Shown piece after piece: positions 6,227 to 59,882 of a stretch of DNA of 64,000 nucleotides. Position 1 is the first letter of the stretch, and each line of letters begins with the position of its first letter. Position numbers and translations under genes: made by a program. This DNA comes from SAR86 cluster bacterium AG-313-D11 (GTDB lineage Bacteria; Pseudomonadota; Gammaproteobacteria; Magnimaribacterales; D2472), in NCBI GenBank assembly GCA_003284215.1, contig QBVW01000001.1, positions 150,127-214,126 of the forward strand, read 5' to 3'. The notes under the pieces are model-generated. The model did no database searches, was not told the origin of the DNA, and saw only the letters and a program-made list of their open reading frames with translations.

Positions 6227-7691
6227 TGGAAATAACTAAATTTATTTTTCTTTCCAGCGGGAAGATAGCAGCAATTTTAACCTTAATTTTTTGCCCAAGC
6301 TTATAAATCCCTCCTCTTCTTTTTCCCTTCAGCGCATTACGATCTGATAAATAATAATATCTGTCATCAGGCAAATCAGAGACATGCAGTAGTCCCGAAA
6401 TAAAGTAAGGCTCTAAATTAATAAATAAACCAAAGTCTGTTACACCAGTGACGACCCCATTCATGGTTGATCCTATTTTTGTTTTTAGATAGGAGCAAAT
6501 CAACACTTGCTCTACTTGTCTAGATGCCTTTTCAGCTCGTCTTTCAAGCATGGAAGAGTTCTCACAATCATCTTGCAATTCATTTTGTCTAGTTTGAATT
6601 TTTTTATGTGCTAGAGATGAGTTAATCAATCTATGAACTAATAAGTCAGGATACCGTCTTATTGGTGATGTGAAATGCGAGTATTGCTTTAATTGCAATC
6701 CAAAATGCCCCAAATTATTTGTTGAATATTCTGCTCTTGCAAGAGTTTGAAGTACTAAGATTTGACCAGTATCGTCGTTATTTTTGTTAGCTTGTTTAAG
6801 ACACAAATTTATAACTTCTAGAGGGGATAGCTTTTTGACCGCTTTAGGTGGAATTTTAAAATGTTTCTTTAGTACTTCTAGCTTGCTTGCATCAGGATTT
6901 TCATGAATCCTATACACGCCAAGGTCTAGACGATCTTGCATAAATTCAGCAGCAGACTCATTAGCAAGAAGCATAGATTCTTCTACAATTTTGTGTGCAA
7001 AAAGAGATTTCTTTATGACTATATTTTTAACCTCTTTGTTTTTATTTAACTCTATGATTGCTTCTTTTGGATTAATTTCTAATGCGCTTCTTTGATTACG
7101 GAGTTTTAATCTAAGGTCGGTAAGATCTTTCAAGTGTTTTATGGAGTCACGAACACCAGCCTGCTTAAAATCGGATAACTTTTTAAGATGTTTTTCAACT
7201 TGCTTATACGTCAGCCTAGCCTTTGAATTAATAAGGCCTCCATAAAATTTATATTTATTTCTTTCACCATCTAAACCAATAGACATTTCGCATATCATTG
7301 CGCATCTATCCTCGTTAGGTCTGAGAGAGCATATCCCATTTGATAAATTCTCTGGAAGCATCGGGATAACTGTTTCTGGAAAGTAAATAGAAGTACCTCT
7401 CTTTTTAGCTTCTTTATCAATTTTTGAGCCCGGAGTTACATAGAAGGATACATCTGCAATAGCTACATAAAGTGTGAAACCATTGCTATTTTTTACACAG
7501 TAAACAGCATCATCAAAGTCTTTAGCATCCTCTCCATCAATGGTTGCAAAATTTAGCTTTCTTAAATCTTTTCTATGCTTAGCTTCCTTTTTTTTATTAG
7601 CAACAGTTTTTGCTTCATTTATAAGATCAGAATGCCATTTTGACGGAAGCTCATGCATTGAAATGGCATCTTGGATCGCTTCTTTATACAT
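6216..7691 (-). CDS. rnr: Ribonuclease R, short form (RNB + S1 only, 491 aa)
   Basis: RNB motifs FATIDGEDAKDFDDAVY, GTSIYFPETVIPMLPE, HFGL..YSHFTSPIRRYPDL; S1 domain GVVTGVTDFGLFINLE...GLLHVSDL. No cold-shock or HTH region upstream of the RNB domain. Confidence 0.85.
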   Translation of the reverse strand: MYKEAIQDAISMHELPSKWHSDLINEAKTVANKKKEAKHRKDLRKLNFATIDGEDAKDFDDAVYCVKNSNGFTLYVAIADVSFYVTPGSKIDKEAKKRGTSIYFPETVIPMLPENLSNGICSLRPNEDRCAMICEMSIGLDGERNKYKFYGGLINSKARLTYKQVEKHLKKLSDFKQAGVRDSIKHLKDLTDLRLKLRNQRSALEINPKEAIIELNKNKEVKNIVIKKSLFAHKIVEESMLLANESAAEFMQDRLDLGVYRIHENPDASKLEVLKKHFKIPPKAVKKLSPLEVINLCLKQANKNNDDTGQILVLQTLARAEYSTNNLGHFGLQLKQYSHFTSPIRRYPDLLVHRLINSSLAHKKIQTRQNELQDDCENSSMLERRAEKASRQVEQVLICSYLKTKIGSTMNGVVTGVTDFGLFINLEPYFISGLLHVSDLPDDRYYYLSDRNALKGKRRGGIYKLGQKIKVKIAAIFPLERKINLVISNGE

Positions 7692-7721
7692 TCAATTTTC
7701 GCTATTGTAATTTTTTTGTGA

Positions 7722-7730
7722 TGCTATAAT
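7722..7730 (+). promoter_or_regulatory. Possible extended -10 promoter (TGcTATAAT)
   Basis: TGCTATAAT at 7722-7730, only 8 nt before ATG 7739, implying a leaderless or near-leaderless transcript. No good -35. Confidence 0.3.
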
Positions 7731-7738
7731 ATCGCTTC

Positions 7739-8023
7739 ATGAATTTCGGACCTAAAAGCAAAAACATCTCATTTATTGGGTTATGTTTCCTTGCAAGTAT
7801 AGCACTCCATTCATTTGCACACATTGATGAGGCTCCCTTAACTGAGGGGCCTGAATTAGAGTGTCTCTCTTGCCACAATGAAGTTTCTTCAGATATAGAA
7901 GTTATTGTTTCTATTCCAAGCAAAATTTTTCCTAAACTTGTAGATGAAATTCTTCCCCTTAAAGTAAATCTACAAGAAAACAAACCTTTTAATTCTCAAG
8001 CACCGCCAAAAATTAATATTTAA
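7739..8023 (+). CDS. Small exported protein with a single CXXCH motif (94 aa)
   Basis: Sec-type signal peptide (MNFGPKSKN-ISFIGLCFLASIALHSFA/HIDE), CLSCH motif, A/T-rich third positions like neighbouring genes. 40 nt upstream of the His-rich TonB receptor. Competes with antisense ORF 7702-7983. Confidence 0.45.
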   Translation: MNFGPKSKNISFIGLCFLASIALHSFAHIDEAPLTEGPELECLSCHNEVSSDIEVIVSIPSKIFPKLVDEILPLKVNLQENKPFNSQAPPKINI

Positions 8024-8063
8024 ATCTTTTTTAAATTTTAATTTTTCTTTTTAGGAGGTTCTT

Positions 8064-10367
8064 ATGAAAATTAATAATTTTGCTTTTTTACTGTTAGCCA
8101 CTTTTTCAATCAACACCTTGTTCGCTGATGATATGGATGAAATTGTCGTAAGCTCGGCTTTCATTGATAAGCCTGCCAGCGAGTTGGCTGACCCAATTCA
8201 TATATTAAGCGGCGATGATATTGCAACTGAAGCCACCCAGAGTTTAGGCGAAAGCATAGATGATTTATTGGGCGTTTCTTCAGCAGATTATGGCTCCGCA
8301 GTCGGTCAGCCAATCATTAGAGGGATGTCAGGTACAAGAGTTAAAGTCCTGGACAATGGCATGGTTAATCGGGATGTTTCAGGCCTTGGTGCTGATCATC
8401 TTAATGACGTTGACATGAGTAATGTGCAGCAAATAGAGGTTGTTAGAGGGCCGTCATCTCTACTCTATACTAACGGAACAGTTGGCGGCATCGTCAATAT
8501 TGTTGATAACTCTATAGCCATGCAAGATGTAGAGCGATTATTTAAAGTTGGGGCTGAATCACAATCGGTTAATGATGGGGACAGCCAAAGCTTTTTTTAT
8601 CAAGATAATGTTGGCGGCAATATAAACGTTAGCCTTGCATATAAAAATACTTCTCTTGGAAATTTTGATGTGCCTAACGGAGCAATTATGCATGAAGAAG
8701 AAGAGCATCATGATGAAGATGAAGACCATGATGATCACGAAGAAGAGGAGCATGAGGAGCATGAAGAAAACTTAGGCTTCTTGGCAAATTCTGATTTTGA
8801 ATCAGAGTCATTTAAATTTGGTGCATCCACTACAGGTGACTGGGGTTATCTTGGAGTTTCATTGGCAAGCATTGAAAGCATGTATGGAATCCCATATCAC
8901 GGTGAAGGTCATGGTGGGCATGGTGATGAGCATGGTGATGAGCATGGTGATGAGCATGGTGAAGAAGAAGAGGGCCACGATGAGCATGAGGGCGAAAGAA
9001 TTTTTAGCAGTACCGATTCTGAGAAATTTGATATCAGAGGATCTTTCAATATTGCCGGTGATTTAGTAAAAAAAGTTGATTTTTTTATGCGAGATACTGA
9101 TTACTCATTCACTGAGCAACATGCTGAAGAAGCGCATGAAGAAGAAGAGGATCATGACGAGGATCATGACGAGGAGCATGACGAGCATGAAGGCCATTCC
9201 GAAGGACCAACCACCTTCACAAATGATGCGATAGAAGCAGGAGCTATCTTTGATTTATCAAATTCTTTAGTTTCTCAAAAATTTGCTATCAACTTTGTGA
9301 ATGAGGATACTTCCGTTATTGGAGCAGAGGCATTTATGACTCCTGCATCAAGAGACGAGCTTACATTTGGTTATTATTTGAGCCGAAGTTTTGATTCTTT
9401 CGATTTAGATTTTGGTGTGAGATATGACATGATTGATAACGAAGGGTCTATAGTATCAGAGCATCATGATGAAGAAGAGCATCACGATGAGGATGAAGAT
9501 CACGAGGAAGAAGATCATGATGAGCATGAGGAAAGTGAAGTCGCTTATTACGATCAATCTTTTAACAATTCTAGTATTGCCTTAAATATTGGAAGAGATC
9601 TTAATGATTTCCTCAGTGTTGATTTTGGGTTTTCTTCAGTAGAAAGAGCCCCTTCAACTACTGAAATGTTTATGAATGGAGCGCATTTAGCAACCGCTAG
9701 ATTTGAGGTTGGTAATGTAAATTTAGATTCAGAAACATCTAATAATATAGATTTCACTCTTAACATGAAAAATGGCAGCTTTTTTGCTAAAGCTTCTGTA
9801 TTTATGAATGATGTTGATAATTACATTTATCTTCAAGATGAAACTGAAGAAGAGCATGAAGAACATGATGAAGAGCATGAAGAAGGCCATGATGATCATG
9901 GAGGTTTAATTCTTGCGAATTATCTTCAACAAGATGCTGAATTAGATGGTTATGAGATTGAATTTGGCAACACCATGGACTTAGGTTCTGGCGAGTTAAC
10001 TCTATCATTTGGAAGAGATGAAGTTTCTGGAGAGTTTTCTAATGGTGGAAATATTCCTCGATTAAACCCAGCTCGAAATATTTTTAAACTGAAATATTCC
10101 CAAGATAATACAATTTTTGGATTGATGTTTAAGGATGTTGAAAAACAGAATGACATAGGGCTTGCTGAGACTAATACAGATGGCTATCAAATGTTGAATG
10201 CTAAATTATCTAGAAGTTTTGATTTTGGCGGCCAAGGAGACTTGACTGTTTCATTGTTTGGAAACAACTTGCTAGATGAGATTGCTAGGAATCATTCCTC
10301 ATATGTTAAAACTCAGGTGCCTTTACCTGGAAAAAATTACGGTATTAGGTTTAACCTAACATTCTAA
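8064..10367 (+). CDS. TonB-dependent outer-membrane receptor with five His/Asp/Glu-rich insertions (767 aa)
   Basis: AGGAGG SD; signal peptide ...NTLFA/DD; TonB-box-like DEIVVSS; plug (IEVVRGPSSLLYTNGTVGGIVNIV); ERAP...GNVNLDSE (FRAP/NPNL-type) region; C-terminal ...IRFNLTF. H/D/E tracts at aa 210-235, 279-311, 353-379, 466-491 and 593-613. Confidence 0.9.
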   Translation: MKINNFAFLLLATFSINTLFADDMDEIVVSSAFIDKPASELADPIHILSGDDIATEATQSLGESIDDLLGVSSADYGSAVGQPIIRGMSGTRVKVLDNGMVNRDVSGLGADHLNDVDMSNVQQIEVVRGPSSLLYTNGTVGGIVNIVDNSIAMQDVERLFKVGAESQSVNDGDSQSFFYQDNVGGNINVSLAYKNTSLGNFDVPNGAIMHEEEEHHDEDEDHDDHEEEEHEEHEENLGFLANSDFESESFKFGASTTGDWGYLGVSLASIESMYGIPYHGEGHGGHGDEHGDEHGDEHGEEEEGHDEHEGERIFSSTDSEKFDIRGSFNIAGDLVKKVDFFMRDTDYSFTEQHAEEAHEEEEDHDEDHDEEHDEHEGHSEGPTTFTNDAIEAGAIFDLSNSLVSQKFAINFVNEDTSVIGAEAFMTPASRDELTFGYYLSRSFDSFDLDFGVRYDMIDNEGSIVSEHHDEEEHHDEDEDHEEEDHDEHEESEVAYYDQSFNNSSIALNIGRDLNDFLSVDFGFSSVERAPSTTEMFMNGAHLATARFEVGNVNLDSETSNNIDFTLNMKNGSFFAKASVFMNDVDNYIYLQDETEEEHEEHDEEHEEGHDDHGGLILANYLQQDAELDGYEIEFGNTMDLGSGELTLSFGRDEVSGEFSNGGNIPRLNPARNIFKLKYSQDNTIFGLMFKDVEKQNDIGLAETNTDGYQMLNAKLSRSFDFGGQGDLTVSLFGNNLLDEIARNHSSYVKTQVPLPGKNYGIRFNLTF
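8901..8969 (+). repeat. 12-bp in-frame tandem repeat GGTGATGAGCAT (GDEH) inside the receptor gene
   Basis: Three perfect units at 8922-8957, flanked by degenerate units (GGTGAAGGTCAT, GGTGGGCAT, GGTGAAGAAGAA). Confidence 0.85.
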
Positions 10368-10390
10368 TTTCTTTAAAATAGGGTTTAAGA

Positions 10391-10428
10391 ACCGGAAACT
10401 GTTCACAAATGGTTTCCGGTTTTTTTAT
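10391..10428 (+). terminator. Rho-independent terminator after the first TonB receptor
   Basis: Perfect 10-bp stem AACCGGAAAC / GTTTCCGGTT followed by TTTTTTT. Confidence 0.8.
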
Positions 10429-10433
10429 TTTTA

Positions 10434-10467
10434 AAATACGTATAATCATTAAAAATTATTAATTATC
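10434..10467 (+). promoter_or_regulatory. Possible Fur-box-like AT-rich operator overlapping a TATAAT -10
   Basis: AATACGTATAATCATTAAA matches the 19-mer GATAATGATAATCATTATC at 13/19 by my count. TATAAT at 10441-10446, 28 nt before the receptor ATG. Background is AT-rich, so weak. Confidence 0.25.
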
Positions 10468-10473
10468 TGTTGC

Positions 10474-13065
10474 ATGAACTTGAGAATTTTACTTCCATTT
10501 TTTATTTTCACCTTTGCAAACAATTTGGTCTTAGCCCAAGACACCGAAGAAATTATTTCAGTTGCTTCATATATAGAATCTAGTGAATTTAATGCATCAC
10601 CTGTAGATATTATTTCAGGGGAAGACTTTAAAAATTTGAGAGTATCCTCTGTAGCTGAGCTAAGCAAGTACCTGAGCATTGCCTCAGGTTCTAACTTTCA
10701 AACCAATGCTTTGGATGGTGTAGATCAGGGCATGGCAAACATCACTTTGCGTGGAATGGATCACGCATCAACCCTTGTGTTAATTAATAAAAAACGTCAG
10801 ACACATTCTGGGACACCTTCTGACGAAGGTGAGGGCTATATCGATATAAATATTATTCCTGAAATAGCCCTTAACAGAATAGAGATTCTCAAAGATGGAG
10901 CCACTTCACTTTATGGCTCCGATGCTGTGGCAGGAGTGATCAATTTTCAAACCTATCAACAATTTACCGGAATGCGGCTTGCGCTTGGCAGTCAGAAAAC
11001 TAGTAACTATGATCAAAGAGACAATTCTTTAGGTGCGCTTTTTGGAGGCGAGGTTTTTGGAGGAAACTATGTATTTGCATTAAGCTCTTTAAATAAATCC
11101 CCTCTAAATGCTGCAAGAATTCCCAAATTTGCTGAATTGGGTCTAAGCGGTCTGGGGAATAGCTTTAAAGTTACTCAAGCAGATTCAGTAGCTTCTGGTA
11201 TATATGCCGGAAGTTATAACAAAAATCAAACAGTGCCTGATCCAAATTGTGTTGATAACGGAGGGGTGTTGGCTGGACCTAGATGTAAATTCTTATATGG
11301 CGAAAGGTTTAATATAGTTAATGATGAGGATCACTTGAAAGGATATCTTCATTTTACAAGATCTAATAAAAAGATTGATTATTCAGCCACTGTGCTAATA
11401 GCCAAAATTGATGTGAATGACAATCCACAATCCCCATCTTATCCAGCTCTGTCATATTTATCTAAGAAAATTTTGCCAGGGCAGGGAGGCAGTCCATTCA
11501 ATGTACCAGTGATTTGGTATGGCAGACCTTTAGGTTCTGCTTTCCCATCACCCAATTCACCCAAGGCTATCTTCCAATATCATTTCAGCAATAGATTAAT
11601 TTTTGATATTTCTCAAAATTTAGATTTTGAACTATCTCTAACTGCTAGTGAACATGAGAATAAGCACAATCGACCAGATACTATAGAATCAAGGTTTGAG
11701 GCTGCAATTTTGGGCGCAGGTGGTCCAAATAGAAATGAGCAGTGGAATATATTTTTACCTTTAGAAAATTCAGCAACTTTGATTGATTACATAAAGGGCT
11801 CTGAGACTTCAACTAAGACTGGCAGCCTTATATCCTTGGATGGAATTTTGAGAGGCAAGAAGAATGGAGCGAACTTTGCTTTAGGTTTTCAATTTAATTC
11901 TGAGGATTTGCGAATCGATTATTCTGAAATGAGTAGAGTGGCATTTGATTCTTTTGGAAAATTAACTAAAGGCGCAGATTTGTTATTTCTAGGGGGTGGG
12001 ACAAACGTTAGTACGAACAGAAAAAAACAAGCTATTTTCTTTGAAGCAAATAAAAATTTTGGCGATGCATTGGACTTAATTTTATCTGGTCGCTATGAAA
12101 AACAAGATAATGAATCATCATTTGACCCAAAATTTTCATTTAAGTATTCAGTCTCAAGAGCTTTTTTATTGAGGGGTTCTATCGGCACCTCTTTTACAGC
12201 TCCTTCGATGGCTCAAATGTTTTCCTCCGAGATTCGGCTTGGAAGTGTAAGAGATATAAATGATTCACCATTTGTTCGTTTAGCAGTTTTAGGAAATCCA
12301 GACTTAAAGCCGGCAACTTCAGAAAATATAACTTTGGGATTTGTATGGGATATTACAGATGAGCTTGATTTAACTTTAGGTTATTGGGCAATTAATTATA
12401 AAAATAGAATTGAAGCAGAGAGCGCTCAAGTTTTGTTAAACACCAATCCTTATGCAGCCAGCGTAACAAGAAATCAGTTTGGAGAACTGATAGCCGTTAG
12501 TACTTCATATTTCAATGAAGAAAAAACAGAAATCAATGGCATAGACGCAGAGATAAATTTTCTTAAAGTCACTAAATATGGAGACTTAAAGTATTCCATT
12601 CAGGCAACTCAATTTTCTGAATTTATAACTCCTGAGGATAATAATATTGGAGATCAGGAATTGCGCTCAATGATGGTCAATAGAGTGGGGAAGTTCAATT
12701 ATGACGCCCATACCCATTCACTACCTAAAATACGATTGAATACATTTTTAAGCTGGACAATAAATGATTTGTTATTAGGAATGAATACAAGATATGTCGA
12801 AGGATATTCAAATGATCGTCAGATACCTGCATCTGCTATCAGCCTTGGCTATACAAATTATGTAAAATCATTTTTAGTGCATGACTTTTCAGTGAAAAAA
12901 TCTTTTCAGCTTTCATTGGGTGAAATGAAGATAGGTCTTGGAATTATCAATGCTTTTGATAAGAAAGCTCCATTACTATATGACGCTCCTGACTTTAGTT
13001 TTGATACAAGAGTTCATGATCCAAGGGGACGTTTAATAAATATTACTGCAGAATTCAATCTTTAA
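10474..13065 (+). CDS. TonB-dependent outer-membrane receptor (863 aa)
   Basis: Signal peptide ...NNLVLA/QD; TonB box EEIISVASY; plug (IEILKDGATSLYGSDAVAGVINF); GNPDLKPATSEN motif; long beta-barrel-type sequence. Confidence 0.9.
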   Translation: MNLRILLPFFIFTFANNLVLAQDTEEIISVASYIESSEFNASPVDIISGEDFKNLRVSSVAELSKYLSIASGSNFQTNALDGVDQGMANITLRGMDHASTLVLINKKRQTHSGTPSDEGEGYIDINIIPEIALNRIEILKDGATSLYGSDAVAGVINFQTYQQFTGMRLALGSQKTSNYDQRDNSLGALFGGEVFGGNYVFALSSLNKSPLNAARIPKFAELGLSGLGNSFKVTQADSVASGIYAGSYNKNQTVPDPNCVDNGGVLAGPRCKFLYGERFNIVNDEDHLKGYLHFTRSNKKIDYSATVLIAKIDVNDNPQSPSYPALSYLSKKILPGQGGSPFNVPVIWYGRPLGSAFPSPNSPKAIFQYHFSNRLIFDISQNLDFELSLTASEHENKHNRPDTIESRFEAAILGAGGPNRNEQWNIFLPLENSATLIDYIKGSETSTKTGSLISLDGILRGKKNGANFALGFQFNSEDLRIDYSEMSRVAFDSFGKLTKGADLLFLGGGTNVSTNRKKQAIFFEANKNFGDALDLILSGRYEKQDNESSFDPKFSFKYSVSRAFLLRGSIGTSFTAPSMAQMFSSEIRLGSVRDINDSPFVRLAVLGNPDLKPATSENITLGFVWDITDELDLTLGYWAINYKNRIEAESAQVLLNTNPYAASVTRNQFGELIAVSTSYFNEEKTEINGIDAEINFLKVTKYGDLKYSIQATQFSEFITPEDNNIGDQELRSMMVNRVGKFNYDAHTHSLPKIRLNTFLSWTINDLLLGMNTRYVEGYSNDRQIPASAISLGYTNYVKSFLVHDFSVKKSFQLSLGEMKIGLGIINAFDKKAPLLYDAPDFSFDTRVHDPRGRLINITAEFNL

Positions 13066-13691: not shown

Positions 13692-14099
13692 ATGAGTAAG
13701 GAAATTAATGTTGATGTATATTGCGCTAGTATTATTGGCGTTTTGCAGTATCTTTTAAAAGAAGGAGAGGAAAGTGCTAAATCTGTAGCAAAAGAATTTG
13801 CAGATGGTAAGGACCCTATTCTTGCTGAAGAGTTTCTTATGGGTGCAAAATCACTCGCTGAAAAATTATCTAAAACTAATCACACATCAGAAGAAATCCT
13901 TCCCTTAATTCCTTTGTATATAAAATTCTTAAGGAAATTCAACTCTGACTTTACGCCAAAATCATTTTTGAAGAAAACCTTTCGAGGCTCAATATTTAGC
14001 AAATCTCAAATTAATAATTTGCATGAGTCCGAAAAAAGAGTTTTGGCATTCCTCCTAAGATGCTTAAGTGGAATGGCAGACGAGGATTGGTTCAGATAA
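13692..14099 (+). CDS. Hypothetical, probably all-helical protein (135 aa)
   Basis: 135-codon open frame starting 9 nt after the previous stop; no family recognised. Confidence 0.6.
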   Translation: MSKEINVDVYCASIIGVLQYLLKEGEESAKSVAKEFADGKDPILAEEFLMGAKSLAEKLSKTNHTSEEILPLIPLYIKFLRKFNSDFTPKSFLKKTFRGSIFSKSQINNLHESEKRVLAFLLRCLSGMADEDWFR

Positions 14100-14456: not shown

Positions 14457-15191
14457 ATGAAAAAAATATTTTTATTATTTACTTTGGTACTAAGTTTTGG
14501 AGTATCAGCTGATGATCATTTGCCAGCTAATTATTCTATGTACCAAACAAATTTTTTGTTTAACTGTCCTGAGCCGGAGCAATGCTTTGCTGCTTTTGAT
14601 AAGTACATGTCAGCACCTGAGGTAGCAGCAGAGAATTTTGAAGTAGATTTTTTTGCCGTTCAACAAAATGGGTGGGACGATTCAACTCATGGCATTAGTT
14701 GGTACTTTCTTGATGAAGATCAATACGCCAAGTCTGGTCAAATCTATACAACATCTCAAGCTGGAAGAGATTTTAGAAAAATGATGAATGATATAGGTGC
14801 TGAAATTATCTCGGATACCTTAACTGTTCATTCAATCGGTGTAACTATTGCTGGAGACGCAGCTACAAATGTTGTAACTCTGCGTTGGAGTCATGAGATT
14901 ACTAATCCTACAAAGTTCGTTCCGCTTTGGAGCAAATTTGCAAAAAGTATTGAAGAATATGATTGGTCTGCAAATGCATATGGTTTGCAATCTCATTTAT
15001 TAGGCAATAATGGAAATGGAATCACTCATGAGATATGGGCATCATTTAGCTCACCACAGGACGCATTAAAATTTTTAAAAGGAATGTATGGATCTAAAGA
15101 GTTTGCAAAGTTTTCACCTGAAGCAAGCAAATATGGAACTTTTAAAAGATCTTACATGGAGGTAAGTCTTAAGCAATATAATCCTGATTAA
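14457..15191 (+). CDS. Secreted protein of unknown function, apparent two-domain internal repeat (244 aa)
   Basis: Signal peptide MKKIFLLFTLVLSFGVSA/DD. The two halves share G..THxI.W..F...Y...F.K pattern. Confidence 0.75.
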   Translation: MKKIFLLFTLVLSFGVSADDHLPANYSMYQTNFLFNCPEPEQCFAAFDKYMSAPEVAAENFEVDFFAVQQNGWDDSTHGISWYFLDEDQYAKSGQIYTTSQAGRDFRKMMNDIGAEIISDTLTVHSIGVTIAGDAATNVVTLRWSHEITNPTKFVPLWSKFAKSIEEYDWSANAYGLQSHLLGNNGNGITHEIWASFSSPQDALKFLKGMYGSKEFAKFSPEASKYGTFKRSYMEVSLKQYNPD

Positions 15192-59474: not shown

Positions 59475-59882
59475 ATGAGTAAAGAAAATACTGAATTAAA
59501 AAAAGCTGGTCTAAAAGCAACCCTTCCTAGAATACGAATTTTAGAAGCTCTTGAATCCGATGATAATCGTCATTTGAGTGCTGAAGATATTTACAAGCAG
59601 CTAATTGCTTCTGGTGAGGATGTAGGTTTAGCAACTGTATATAGAGTGTTAACTCAGTTTGAATCAGCAGGTATTGTTACGCGGCATAATTTTGAAGAGG
59701 GTCATGCAGTTTATGAAATCACACCTGATGACCATCATGATCATATGGTATGTTTAGAAACTGGTAAGGTAGTTGAGTTTCACGATGAGCTAATCGAAAA
59801 ACGTCAGGAATCTATTGCAAATGAAATGGGCTATGAAATAGTTGATCACAGCATGGTTCTATACGTTAAACCTATTAAATAA
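59475..59882 (+). CDS. fur: Ferric uptake regulator
   Basis: 135 aa; LKKAGLKATLPRIRILE..., GLATVYRVLTQFE.AGIV.RHNFE.G.AVYE, HHDHMVC...G.V.EF. Confidence 0.93.
   Translation: MSKENTELKKAGLKATLPRIRILEALESDDNRHLSAEDIYKQLIASGEDVGLATVYRVLTQFESAGIVTRHNFEEGHAVYEITPDDHHDHMVCLETGKVVEFHDELIEKRQESIANEMGYEIVDHSMVLYVKPIK

Follow-up and report, generated by a model that had tools for sequence, protein, structure and literature searches.

The 64,000-nucleotide (nt) stretch of DNA analysed here (the window), which belongs to the genome of SAR86 cluster bacterium AG-313-D11 and has a G+C content of 37%, carries a gene for a TonB-dependent receptor with five histidine-rich tracts, preceded by a short upstream open reading frame (uORF). 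We consider it reasonably probable that these form a two-gene unit, in which the translation of a metal importer of the ZnuD family is gated by an arrest-type uORF. Computation provided the fold and topology of the receptor, the conservation of its metal ligands and of the uORF, the C-terminal motif of the uORF peptide and its spacing, a hairpin over the receptor start site, and the co-variation of the two arms of this hairpin. The coordinates of the features are compiled in Table 1.

Identification of the receptor as a member of the ZnuD-like family

The product of 8064-10367 is a TonB-dependent receptor, possessing a plug, a 22-stranded barrel, a TonB box and a C-terminal aromatic residue. 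By inspection, its 767 amino acids (aa) include a signal peptide, the TonB box DEIVVSS and a C-terminal Phe, while Pfam recognised, both above the cut-offs, the domains Plug (PF07715; aa 39-143) and TonB_dep_Rec_b-barrel (PF00593; aa 388-736). An AlphaFold 2 (AF2) model was built from an alignment of 105 diverse homologs, replacing a model from 24 close homologs in which the plug was unmodelled and the predicted local distance difference test score (pLDDT) was 49. The new model reached a mean pLDDT of 85.8 and a predicted TM-score of 0.87, and displayed the plug and 22 strands connected by periplasmic turns of 2-7 residues. When this model was submitted to Foldseek, the best solved structure was ZnuD (E 4e-45; TM-score 0.79-0.91; root-mean-square deviation 2.5 A to 4rvw), followed by OprC (E 4e-30). 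The profile of the 105-sequence family matched ZnuD from end to end (E 2e-159), the next profile from the PDB being that of PhuR (E 7e-43). The top NCBIfam model was that of ZnuD (NF038289), with a score of 204.5 bits against a curated cut-off of 950; the receptor is therefore not an ortholog of neisserial ZnuD. Judged from these alignments, it is a member of the broad ZnuD-like family, and the link to ZnuD drawn in an earlier note on this DNA, made from the letters alone, is upheld by fold, profile and ligands alike.

In ZnuD, zinc is bound by Asp99, His100, Glu340 and His499 (PMC4557270). The residues aligned with these four ligands (D111, H112, E351 and H541) were invariant in the 105 homologs, down to 27% identity, and belong to just 18 invariant columns of the alignment. 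The four-ligand zinc site of the broad ZnuD-like family thus appears to be present, and the flexible His/Asp-rich loop 3 has its counterpart in tract 2, which sits on the loop between strands 5 and 6. The receptor therefore resembles ZnuD of Neisseria meningitidis (PDB 4rdr, 4rdt and 4rvw) in its fold, its four ligands and this loop. It differs in overall sequence (about 21% identity) and in the extent of the tracts, which lie on five loops, whereas the two His/Asp clusters of ZnuD are both on loop 3. Moreover, the tracts are dominated by Glu and, unlike ZnuD, the receptor has no Cys pair in its loops. It belongs to a free-living oligotroph and has a uORF before its gene, while ZnuD belongs to a pathogen.

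Two copper receptor identities were tried and rejected: (i) OprC/NosA, for which TIGR01778 gave 43.9 bits against a cut-off of 472, and (ii) CrtA/BfrG, given that the receptor clusters with ZnuD, that no PepSY_TM gene follows and that a terminator marks the end of the unit. In the literature, CrtA receptors form a cluster separate from every receptor with a solved structure. Our family profile matched one solved 732-aa "TonB-dependent receptor", which may be CrtA, only over the plug (E 4e-18). Import of heme, as by receptors of the FRAP/NPNL family, could be read into the segment ERAP...H541...GNVNL, which resembles the FRAP/NPNL boxes with their His, into weak matches to TIGR01785/01786, and into the place of PhuR, ShuA and ChuA as the next-best PDB profiles. 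We regard it as most improbable, however, since ZnuD has the same motifs but binds no heme, its pocket being too small, since the Asp and Glu ligands are invariant, and since the scores lie far under the heme-family cut-offs.

Five His-rich tracts on extracellular loops

The earlier note had described a TonB-dependent receptor with five His/Asp/Glu tracts holding 34 His, and our recount and the Pfam matches agree with this: 34 of the 38 His residues of the receptor lie within five H/D/E/G tracts when the boundaries of that note are used. Stricter boundaries (aa 210-235, 279-311, 358-381, 466-490 and 595-614) leave 33. Neither Cys nor Met occurs in the tracts. In the AF2 model all five are extracellular, placed in connections from odd- to even-numbered strands (loops L2, L3, L4, L6 and L8), and none is periplasmic or in the plug, as had been expected from their spacing. 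Outside the tracts and the signal peptide, the model has no segment of low confidence. The His residues of tract 5, which is partly helical in the model, are at i/i+3/i+4 spacing. Tract 5 is longer in one SAR86 subgroup, which lacks tract 4.

More than 5900 database proteins matched the receptor at E <= 1e-10, and in the best 120 metagenomic homologs (65-98% identity) the tracts are found at the same five positions. For a survey of loci, one genome per species was scanned; 260 genomes contained a relative, and the best 80 loci were analysed. These come from SAR86, SAR92/HTCC2207, other Porticoccaceae, the alphaproteobacterial PS1 and OCS116 groups, and Woeseia, the closest being from SAR86E and AG-313 single cells (about 90% identity). 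In most of the 80 loci, which derive from separate assemblies, four or five of these positions are occupied by a tract and the receptor contains 22-60 His; this disposes of the concern that the tracts might be an artefact of one assembly. Even at about 50% identity, between bacterial classes, the tracts remain in their five positions and retain an H/D/E composition. Representatives of the wider family (27-57% identity) carry from 0 to 5 tracts, so that the five-loop form is the extreme of a continuum; within a large marine clade, the sequences indicate that it is the norm. The statement that the number of tracts goes beyond described receptors therefore stands in one sense only: the searchable literature yielded no five-loop or multi-tract marine ZnuD-like receptor (nor any zinc or copper work on SAR86 or SAR92), but in this clade such receptors are the rule.

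Since tract lengths vary by in-frame insertions and deletions between close relatives, slippage does shape the tracts. At 8919-8954, within tract 2, the 12-nt unit CATGGTGATGAG (HGDE) stands three times in tandem without any mismatch. An exact 18-nt string, AGAGCATCATGATGAAGA, had been reported at 8702-8719 and 9458-9475 and was found at both places; its use as weak evidence of duplication was abandoned, as 135 of 500 trials (27%) with codons shuffled within the tracts also gave shared strings of 17 nt or more, so that the string is no more than chance. The length changes, the perfect threefold repeat and a chance-level 18-mer would all suit tracts that are neutral slippage expansions or surface decoys, with no part in metal capture. 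This we think very unlikely, because the positions and composition of the tracts are maintained across classes, tract 5 hardly varies among homologs with identities of 70% or more, tract 2 starts at the residue aligned with the start of the first His/Asp cluster of ZnuD loop 3 (HSHEY), and a set of anchor His residues is invariant within the clade (H210, H279, H305, H308, H353, H375, H378, H467, H598 and H612). The loops may act as the high-capacity trap envisaged in the earlier note; the authors of the ZnuD work call its loop 3 a "fishing net" for zinc.

A conserved uORF resembling arrest-peptide regulators

The uORF ends 40 nt before the receptor gene. It is not mentioned in the earlier note, and we regard it as the part of the locus that tells most. 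An equivalent ORF lies directly 5' of the receptor in 77 of 83 related loci from gamma- and alphaproteobacteria, and a gene has already been called at this position on a 735-kb SAR86 contig of like synteny. Among 13 SAR86 copies of the uORF, differences are enriched at third codon positions. An antisense ORF of 93 aa overlapping the uORF (7702-7983, minus strand) is not kept open in relatives and is probably spurious.

By inspection, the peptide carries an export signal (N-terminal Lys, a hydrophobic core of 18 residues, and SFA/H). Its overall identity between relatives is low and its middle variable, with only a Cys and the APP motif invariant; the order of its parts is constant, namely export signal, His-rich stretch, Cys, variable middle and a C-terminal (S/A)-(R/Q)-A-P-P. 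The invariant Cys42 usually stands within E-C-x-x-C-x-N, a CxxC is present in 64 of the 77 relatives, and a His-rich stretch precedes the Cys in all lineages. A cytochrome c motif (CXXCH) was considered and dismissed, as the His is not conserved and Paired_CXXCH matched only at E 0.079. The census of the C-terminal motif in the 77 uORFs gave RAPP (n = 58), QAPP (n = 18, including the window) and RGPP (n = 1), in 35 codon spellings and 1-5 residues ahead of the stop; in the window, QAPP lies 4 residues from the end. Wherever a CxxC is present (64/64), its distance to the xAPP motif is 40-42 residues, the window having 41. As side observations, a 185-aa His-rich ORF (…HDHNDHSGD…HYDHAGHHEHAEHHDHGE…) replaces the short uORF in one locus (L072, 5309-5866), and in another (L024, 5675-5962) the uORF ends in RASP instead of RAPP, its receptor having one tract only.

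This architecture recalls CruR of Bordetella pertussis (Bp2923, DUF2946), a uORF heading the bfrG/crtA receptor operon (PMC9426467). CruR has an export signal and a CXXC that is separated by 45 residues from a RAPP located three residues from the end of the peptide; when copper is lacking, ribosomes stall at RAPP and the operon is on, whereas copper, acting through the CXXC, relieves the stall and Rho terminates transcription (PMC9426467). The arrest was later demonstrated in vitro, the P and A sites being occupied by two Pro codons (PMC12992588), and structures of other RAPP peptides agree with this placement (PMC10951233). Like CruR, the window uORF comes first in its unit, before a TonB-dependent receptor, and encodes a small exported peptide having a CxxC as well as a RAPP-type C-terminal motif at fixed spacing. 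It departs from CruR in length (94 versus 145 aa), in motif spacing (40-42 among our loci versus 45), in the intergenic distance (40 versus 162 nt), in having QAPP and an additional His-rich segment, and in the absence of a DUF2946 match at the Pfam threshold. Furthermore, CruR heads a receptor of the CrtA type, while the receptor here is of the ZnuD type and has no PepSY_TM gene after it. Pfam assigned the window peptide to no family at threshold; DUF2946 was weakly matched by 2 of 34 uORF relatives (E 0.004).

The second regulator of relevance is CutF of Rhodobacter capsulatus, which acts by translation, the stalled ribosome melting a stem-loop over the ribosome-binding site of the next gene (PMC9973294). 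CutF-like proteins are defined operationally, and some of their clusters are thought to sense metals besides copper (PMC9973294; Ozturk et al. 2023). With 94 aa, a PP at residues 89-90 and an intergenic region of 40 nt, the window uORF falls within that definition (PMC9973294). On sequence grounds, it carries the signature of the copper-sensing arrest-peptide uORFs CruR and CutF. No such uORFs in marine oligotrophs were found in the searchable literature.

It might be supposed that the uORF product instead does its work as a protein in the periplasm or anchored to a membrane, for instance as a metallochaperone or a partner of the receptor, with no regulation in cis. The export signal, the conserved His and Cys ligands, and conservation at the protein level across classes are what such a protein would show. 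Yet the middle of the peptide is poorly conserved around its two invariant elements, the strict spacing to an arrest-type motif and the overlap of that motif with an anti-Shine-Dalgarno strand (see below) are hard to explain for a chaperone, and neither CruR nor CutF can be detected in cells, their action being confined to cis. We therefore judge a working protein to be improbable.

Putative arrest codons predicted to pair with the receptor Shine-Dalgarno sequence

The end of the uORF and the intergenic region are predicted to fold into a hairpin with a minimum free energy (MFE) of -15.8 kcal/mol (z -3.39), and none of 200 shuffled sequences folded as well. In this structure the xAPP codons form the strand opposite the receptor Shine-Dalgarno (SD) sequence. 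Applied to a MAFFT alignment of 58 uORF-end/intergenic regions, RNAalifold returned no consensus structure, because the pairing registers differ between subgroups. Instead of consensus folding, sequences were folded one by one, duplexes were ranked, and arm-swap permutations were run. Of 75 loci, 56 have an MFE structure in which the SD is paired with the motif codons. When all windows along the uORF were ranked as partners of the SD, the motif window came first in 44 of 78 loci; the motif:SD duplex averages -8.5 kcal/mol against a background of -3.4. The two arms co-vary, as exemplified by GCNCCUCC with GGAGGU, GAGCUCC with GGAGUUC, and CCACCUUUA with UAAAGGAGG. Native pairs of arms had a mean energy of -14.9 kcal/mol compared with -10.1 for swapped pairs, a loss of about 4.8 kcal/mol, and not one of 5000 permutations reached the native value. 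A search for known RNA families over 7400-10600 gave nothing near gathering scores.

A stem-loop shielding the downstream ribosome-binding site, as described for CutF, is thus predicted in the window. In CutF the anti-SD lies in the intergenic stem-loop, whereas here the arrest codons themselves would be the anti-SD. SecM-secA offers another parallel: the ribosome stalled on SecM, an arrest peptide (RAGP) that is exported, opens a helix hiding the downstream SD; SecM, however, senses secretion activity and not a metal, and regulates a different target. As the arrest codons are here the anti-SD, the unit would embody the SecM/CutF logic in a more compact form. We found no description of arrest codons doubling as an anti-SD in the searchable literature.

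Control could alternatively proceed by Rho-dependent termination, without SD sequestration. That is the demonstrated mechanism of CruR, the sole member of the class linked to a TonB-dependent transporter, and the end of the uORF together with the intergenic region has more C than G and is poor in G. We hold this to be unlikely, as the intergenic region has 40 nt against 162 nt in B. pertussis, and as a co-varying, SD-sequestering hairpin, predicted here, fits the mode of CutF and SecM; the two modes are not exclusive.

One further sequence bears on the same region. L003 (1-3458; Logan assembly SRR1873745) is at least 99% identical to the window from 7306 to about 8040, while beyond the end of the uORF its receptor is just 69% identical to that of the window at the protein level. 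The breakpoint falls within the conserved intergenic hairpin, and L003 may therefore be either an assembly chimera or a natural recombinant.

Promoter and Zur sites

An extended -10 element ends 8 nt ahead of the uORF ATG, which has no SD before it. The uORF mRNA is therefore probably leaderless or nearly so, with the transcription start site predicted from sequence. Zur-box cores (TGTTATAWTATAACA) at 13/15 or better occur only 5 times in 1.13 Mb of related sequence, and 4 of these 5 sites lie at the promoter of the uORF-receptor unit. In one SAR86 subclade they are placed 21 nt before the uORF (15/15 in L057, 14/15 in L041 and 13/15 in L035), whereas in L014, a complete SAR86 genome without the uORF, a 14/15 site lies between the -35 and -10 elements of the receptor. 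By sequence match, canonical Zur boxes thus stand at the promoter of the unit in two related lineages. The earlier note had advised looking for a Zur box in the genome. In the window itself the outcome was weaker: at the position corresponding to the boxes of that subclade, an imperfect palindrome overlapping the -10 element agrees with the core at 11/15, a match that is not significant alone (background probability of at least 11/15, 0.025 per 75-nt window).

Neither zur nor znuA was found within the 64-kb window, which contains only a Fur homolog (135 aa, 59475-59882, plus strand; 61% identical to Escherichia coli Fur over 130 residues). No Fur box above background was detected upstream of the uORF. 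In the subclade with Zur boxes, the DNA just upstream of the box encodes a conserved protein of about 124 aa that is rich in Gly and Ser and matches no Pfam family (L041 5231-5605, L057 5225-5602, L035 2611-2973).

Zinc or copper as the likely transported metal

For the metal handled by the unit, we give zinc about an even chance and copper a distinctly smaller one, with what remains going to another metal or a mixture. Zinc is favoured by the kinship with ZnuD, by the ligand set, by H/D/E tracts devoid of Cys and Met, and by the Zur boxes of relatives.

The same architecture could serve copper, the receptor importing Cu(II) or a weak copper chelate for heme-copper oxidases and the uORF being a true CruR-type regulator. 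All characterised uORFs of this type (CruR, CutF and CopL) respond to copper, and CxxC is a classic copper motif. Over 40% of the operons of CrtA receptors begin with a CruR-type uORF, and genes for Sco and PCuAC are among those found in such operons. According to the Irving-Williams series, Cu(II) should be held by an Asp/His/Glu/His site no less strongly than Zn(II), which also counts for copper. Six SAR86 loci place the unit directly after SURF1, CtaA, CtaB and SCO1, and a MerC-family membrane protein adjoins the unit in 14 loci, in two gene orders; these neighbours point to copper or another soft metal. In other lineages the neighbours of the unit are mostly unrelated housekeeping genes. 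On the other side, the receptor is neither of the CrtA nor of the OprC type, its tracts contain no Cys or Met, and canonical Zur boxes are found at the promoter in two lineages. Copper is in our opinion a serious rival, though the less likely of the two metals.

The oxidase-assembly cluster (SURF1, an unknown gene, CtaA, CtaB and SCO1) occupies 1893-5654 in L026 and is also present in L028, L036, L047, L063 and L066; it ends 22 nt before the uORF, and the SAR86 subclade that has it is without motif:SD pairing. The MerC-family protein (132 aa) has CVLHC in its first helix and a C-terminal CKESDCTCHD, and it is absent from the window. Its gene is downstream of the receptor in SAR86 (L030 8271-8669 and 10 other loci), and upstream, overlapping the uORF, in PS1/OCS116 (L049 5203-5598, L051 and L080). 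The protein is a candidate inner-membrane partner.

Proposed mechanism of the uORF-receptor unit

In the mechanism that we favour, the receptor would take up a divalent transition metal in a TonB-dependent manner, Zn(II) being the likeliest one. The five disordered, acidic, His-rich loops would be weak collecting sites, in the manner of ZnuD loop 3, and would hand the ion to a buried site made of Asp111, His112, Glu351 and His541, between the plug apex and the barrel, from which a TonB-driven movement of the plug would free it into the periplasm. The 94-codon uORF would be translated from a nearly leaderless mRNA, and the ribosome would pause on it when the two Pro codons occupy its P and A sites. 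Because these codons otherwise pair with the receptor SD and AUG, a ribosome paused in this way, covering the whole 5' arm, would keep the start site open. Binding of metal by the nascent peptide would relieve the pause; termination would follow, the hairpin would re-form and receptor synthesis would stop. CutF controls a detoxifying oxidase induced at high copper, and as the target in the window is an uptake receptor, the logic should be inverted with respect to CutF, as it is in CruR. Where the mechanism invokes stalling, relief of the stall by metal, a direction of control or a particular metal, we argue by analogy with CruR, CutF and SecM.

A more specific proposal is that the uORF encodes a zinc-sensing nascent peptide (H-x3-H...C-x2-C) acting together with Zur to adjust the amount of a five-loop zinc collector in SAR86 and further oligotrophs that dominate the ocean, its arrest codons serving at the same time as the anti-SD. 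Zinc bound as the peptide emerges from the ribosome or translocon would then release the Pro-Pro pause. In a variant, Zur would report zinc, and the uORF would shut the gate when periplasmic copper rises. We put forward the zinc-sensing peptide only tentatively; if true, it would be the first translational-arrest sensor for zinc.

Besides the indications for copper given above, several points weigh against the gating of a zinc importer by an arrest-type uORF: (i) the Arg of RAPP is critical in the peptides that have been tested, its change to Ala abolishing stalling in ApdA, ApdP and CruR (PMC12992588, PMC10951233), and as the window has QAPP, stalling may be weaker here; (ii) the motif:SD duplex of the window is weak (-6.4 kcal/mol, rank 23 of 81), the first Pro codon being CCG and not CCU, which leaves an A.G mismatch; (iii) the window uORF is below the Pfam threshold for DUF2946 and its motif spacing is 41 and not 45; (iv) a subgroup of Porticoccaceae is without both the CxxC and the SD pairing; and (v) the window's own Zur-like site reaches just 11/15.

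SAR86 and its neighbours are among the most abundant heterotrophs of the surface ocean, and inventories of SAR86 receptors read the TonB-dependent ones as importers of iron or carbon. The locus speaks for a receptor dedicated to a non-iron trace metal, probably zinc; this receptor is unannotated and occurs widely in marine lineages. A further suggestion from the locus is that in streamlined genomes the receptor is regulated by a 94-codon sensor, instead of or besides a transcription factor. Single-loop ZnuD receptors, CruR/CutF uORFs and CrtA copper receptors are already present in the searchable literature; the unit would extend the CruR/CutF class to another receptor family, to marine oligotrophs and possibly to another metal, in a very compact design where stalling codons double as anti-SD.

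Features and gene neighbourhood

Table 1. Features of the uORF-receptor unit, with positions in the window
Feature	Position	Strand	Basis or remarks
Extended -10 element TGcTATAAT	7722-7730	+	Sequence; kept in close SAR86 relatives
Imperfect palindrome TGCTATAATATCGCT, possible degenerate Zur operator overlapping the -10 element	7722-7736		11/15 of Zur-box core TGTTATAWTATAACA
uORF, 94 codons, small exported peptide of CruR/CutF-like arrest-peptide architecture	7739-8023	+	Conservation
Putative metal-sensing segment of the uORF peptide (H24, H28, C42-L-S-C45-H46)	7808-7876	+	Conservation
Predicted mRNA hairpin	7993-8068	+	5' arm, QAPPKINI codons and stop; 3' arm, intergenic region, SD and part of AUG
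Q87-A-P-P90 codons CAA GCA CCG CCA, variant of the RAPP arrest motif and predicted anti-SD strand	7997-8008	+	Motif census, pairing
Receptor SD AGGAGG	8053-8058	+	Pairs with A-P-P codons in MFE and centroid structures
TonB-dependent receptor, ZnuD family, 767 aa	8064-10367	+	Pfam, AF2 model, Foldseek, family profile
Asp111-His112, plug apex, aligned with ZnuD Asp99-His100	8394-8399	+	Residue and profile alignments
Tract 1, aa 210-235, 7 His, loop L2 (strands 3-4)	8691-8768	+	AF2, pLDDT 46-51, unstructured
Tract 2, aa 279-311, 8 His, loop L3 (strands 5-6)	8898-8996	+	Composition, AF2
Glu351, top of strand 7, aligned with ZnuD Glu340	9114-9116	+	Profile alignment
Tract 3, aa 353-381, 7 His, loop L4 (strands 7-8)	9120-9206	+	Composition, AF2
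Tract 4, aa 466-490, 7 His, loop L6 (strands 11-12)	9459-9533	+	Composition, AF2
His541, loop L7, between the ERAP and GNVNL motifs, aligned with ZnuD His499	9684-9686	+	Alignments
Tract 5, aa 595-614, 5 His, loop L8 (strands 15-16)	9846-9905	+	Composition, AF2
Intrinsic terminator hairpin, end of the two-gene unit	10387-10424	+	Sequence

After the terminator, a second TonB-dependent receptor of 863 aa is encoded at 10474-13065 (plus strand), with weak CirA/FepA-like matches; its promoter region shows a 13/19 match to the Fur box at 10435-10453 (AATACGTATAATCATTAAA). Several SAR86 lineages show the two receptors in synteny. Comparison with the syntenic SAR86 contig L001 showed that gene order is kept for secA, lpxC, spoU and rnr, for the uORF, the receptor and the second receptor, and for msrA and birA. 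Two window ORFs without a Pfam match, at 13692-14099 (plus strand, 135 aa) and 14457-15191 (plus strand, 244 aa, with a signal peptide), are absent from L001. Further downstream, the tuf-nusG-rplKAJL-rpoBC and S10/spc/alpha supercluster of ribosomal-protein genes (16899-45977) makes up most of what remains of the window.

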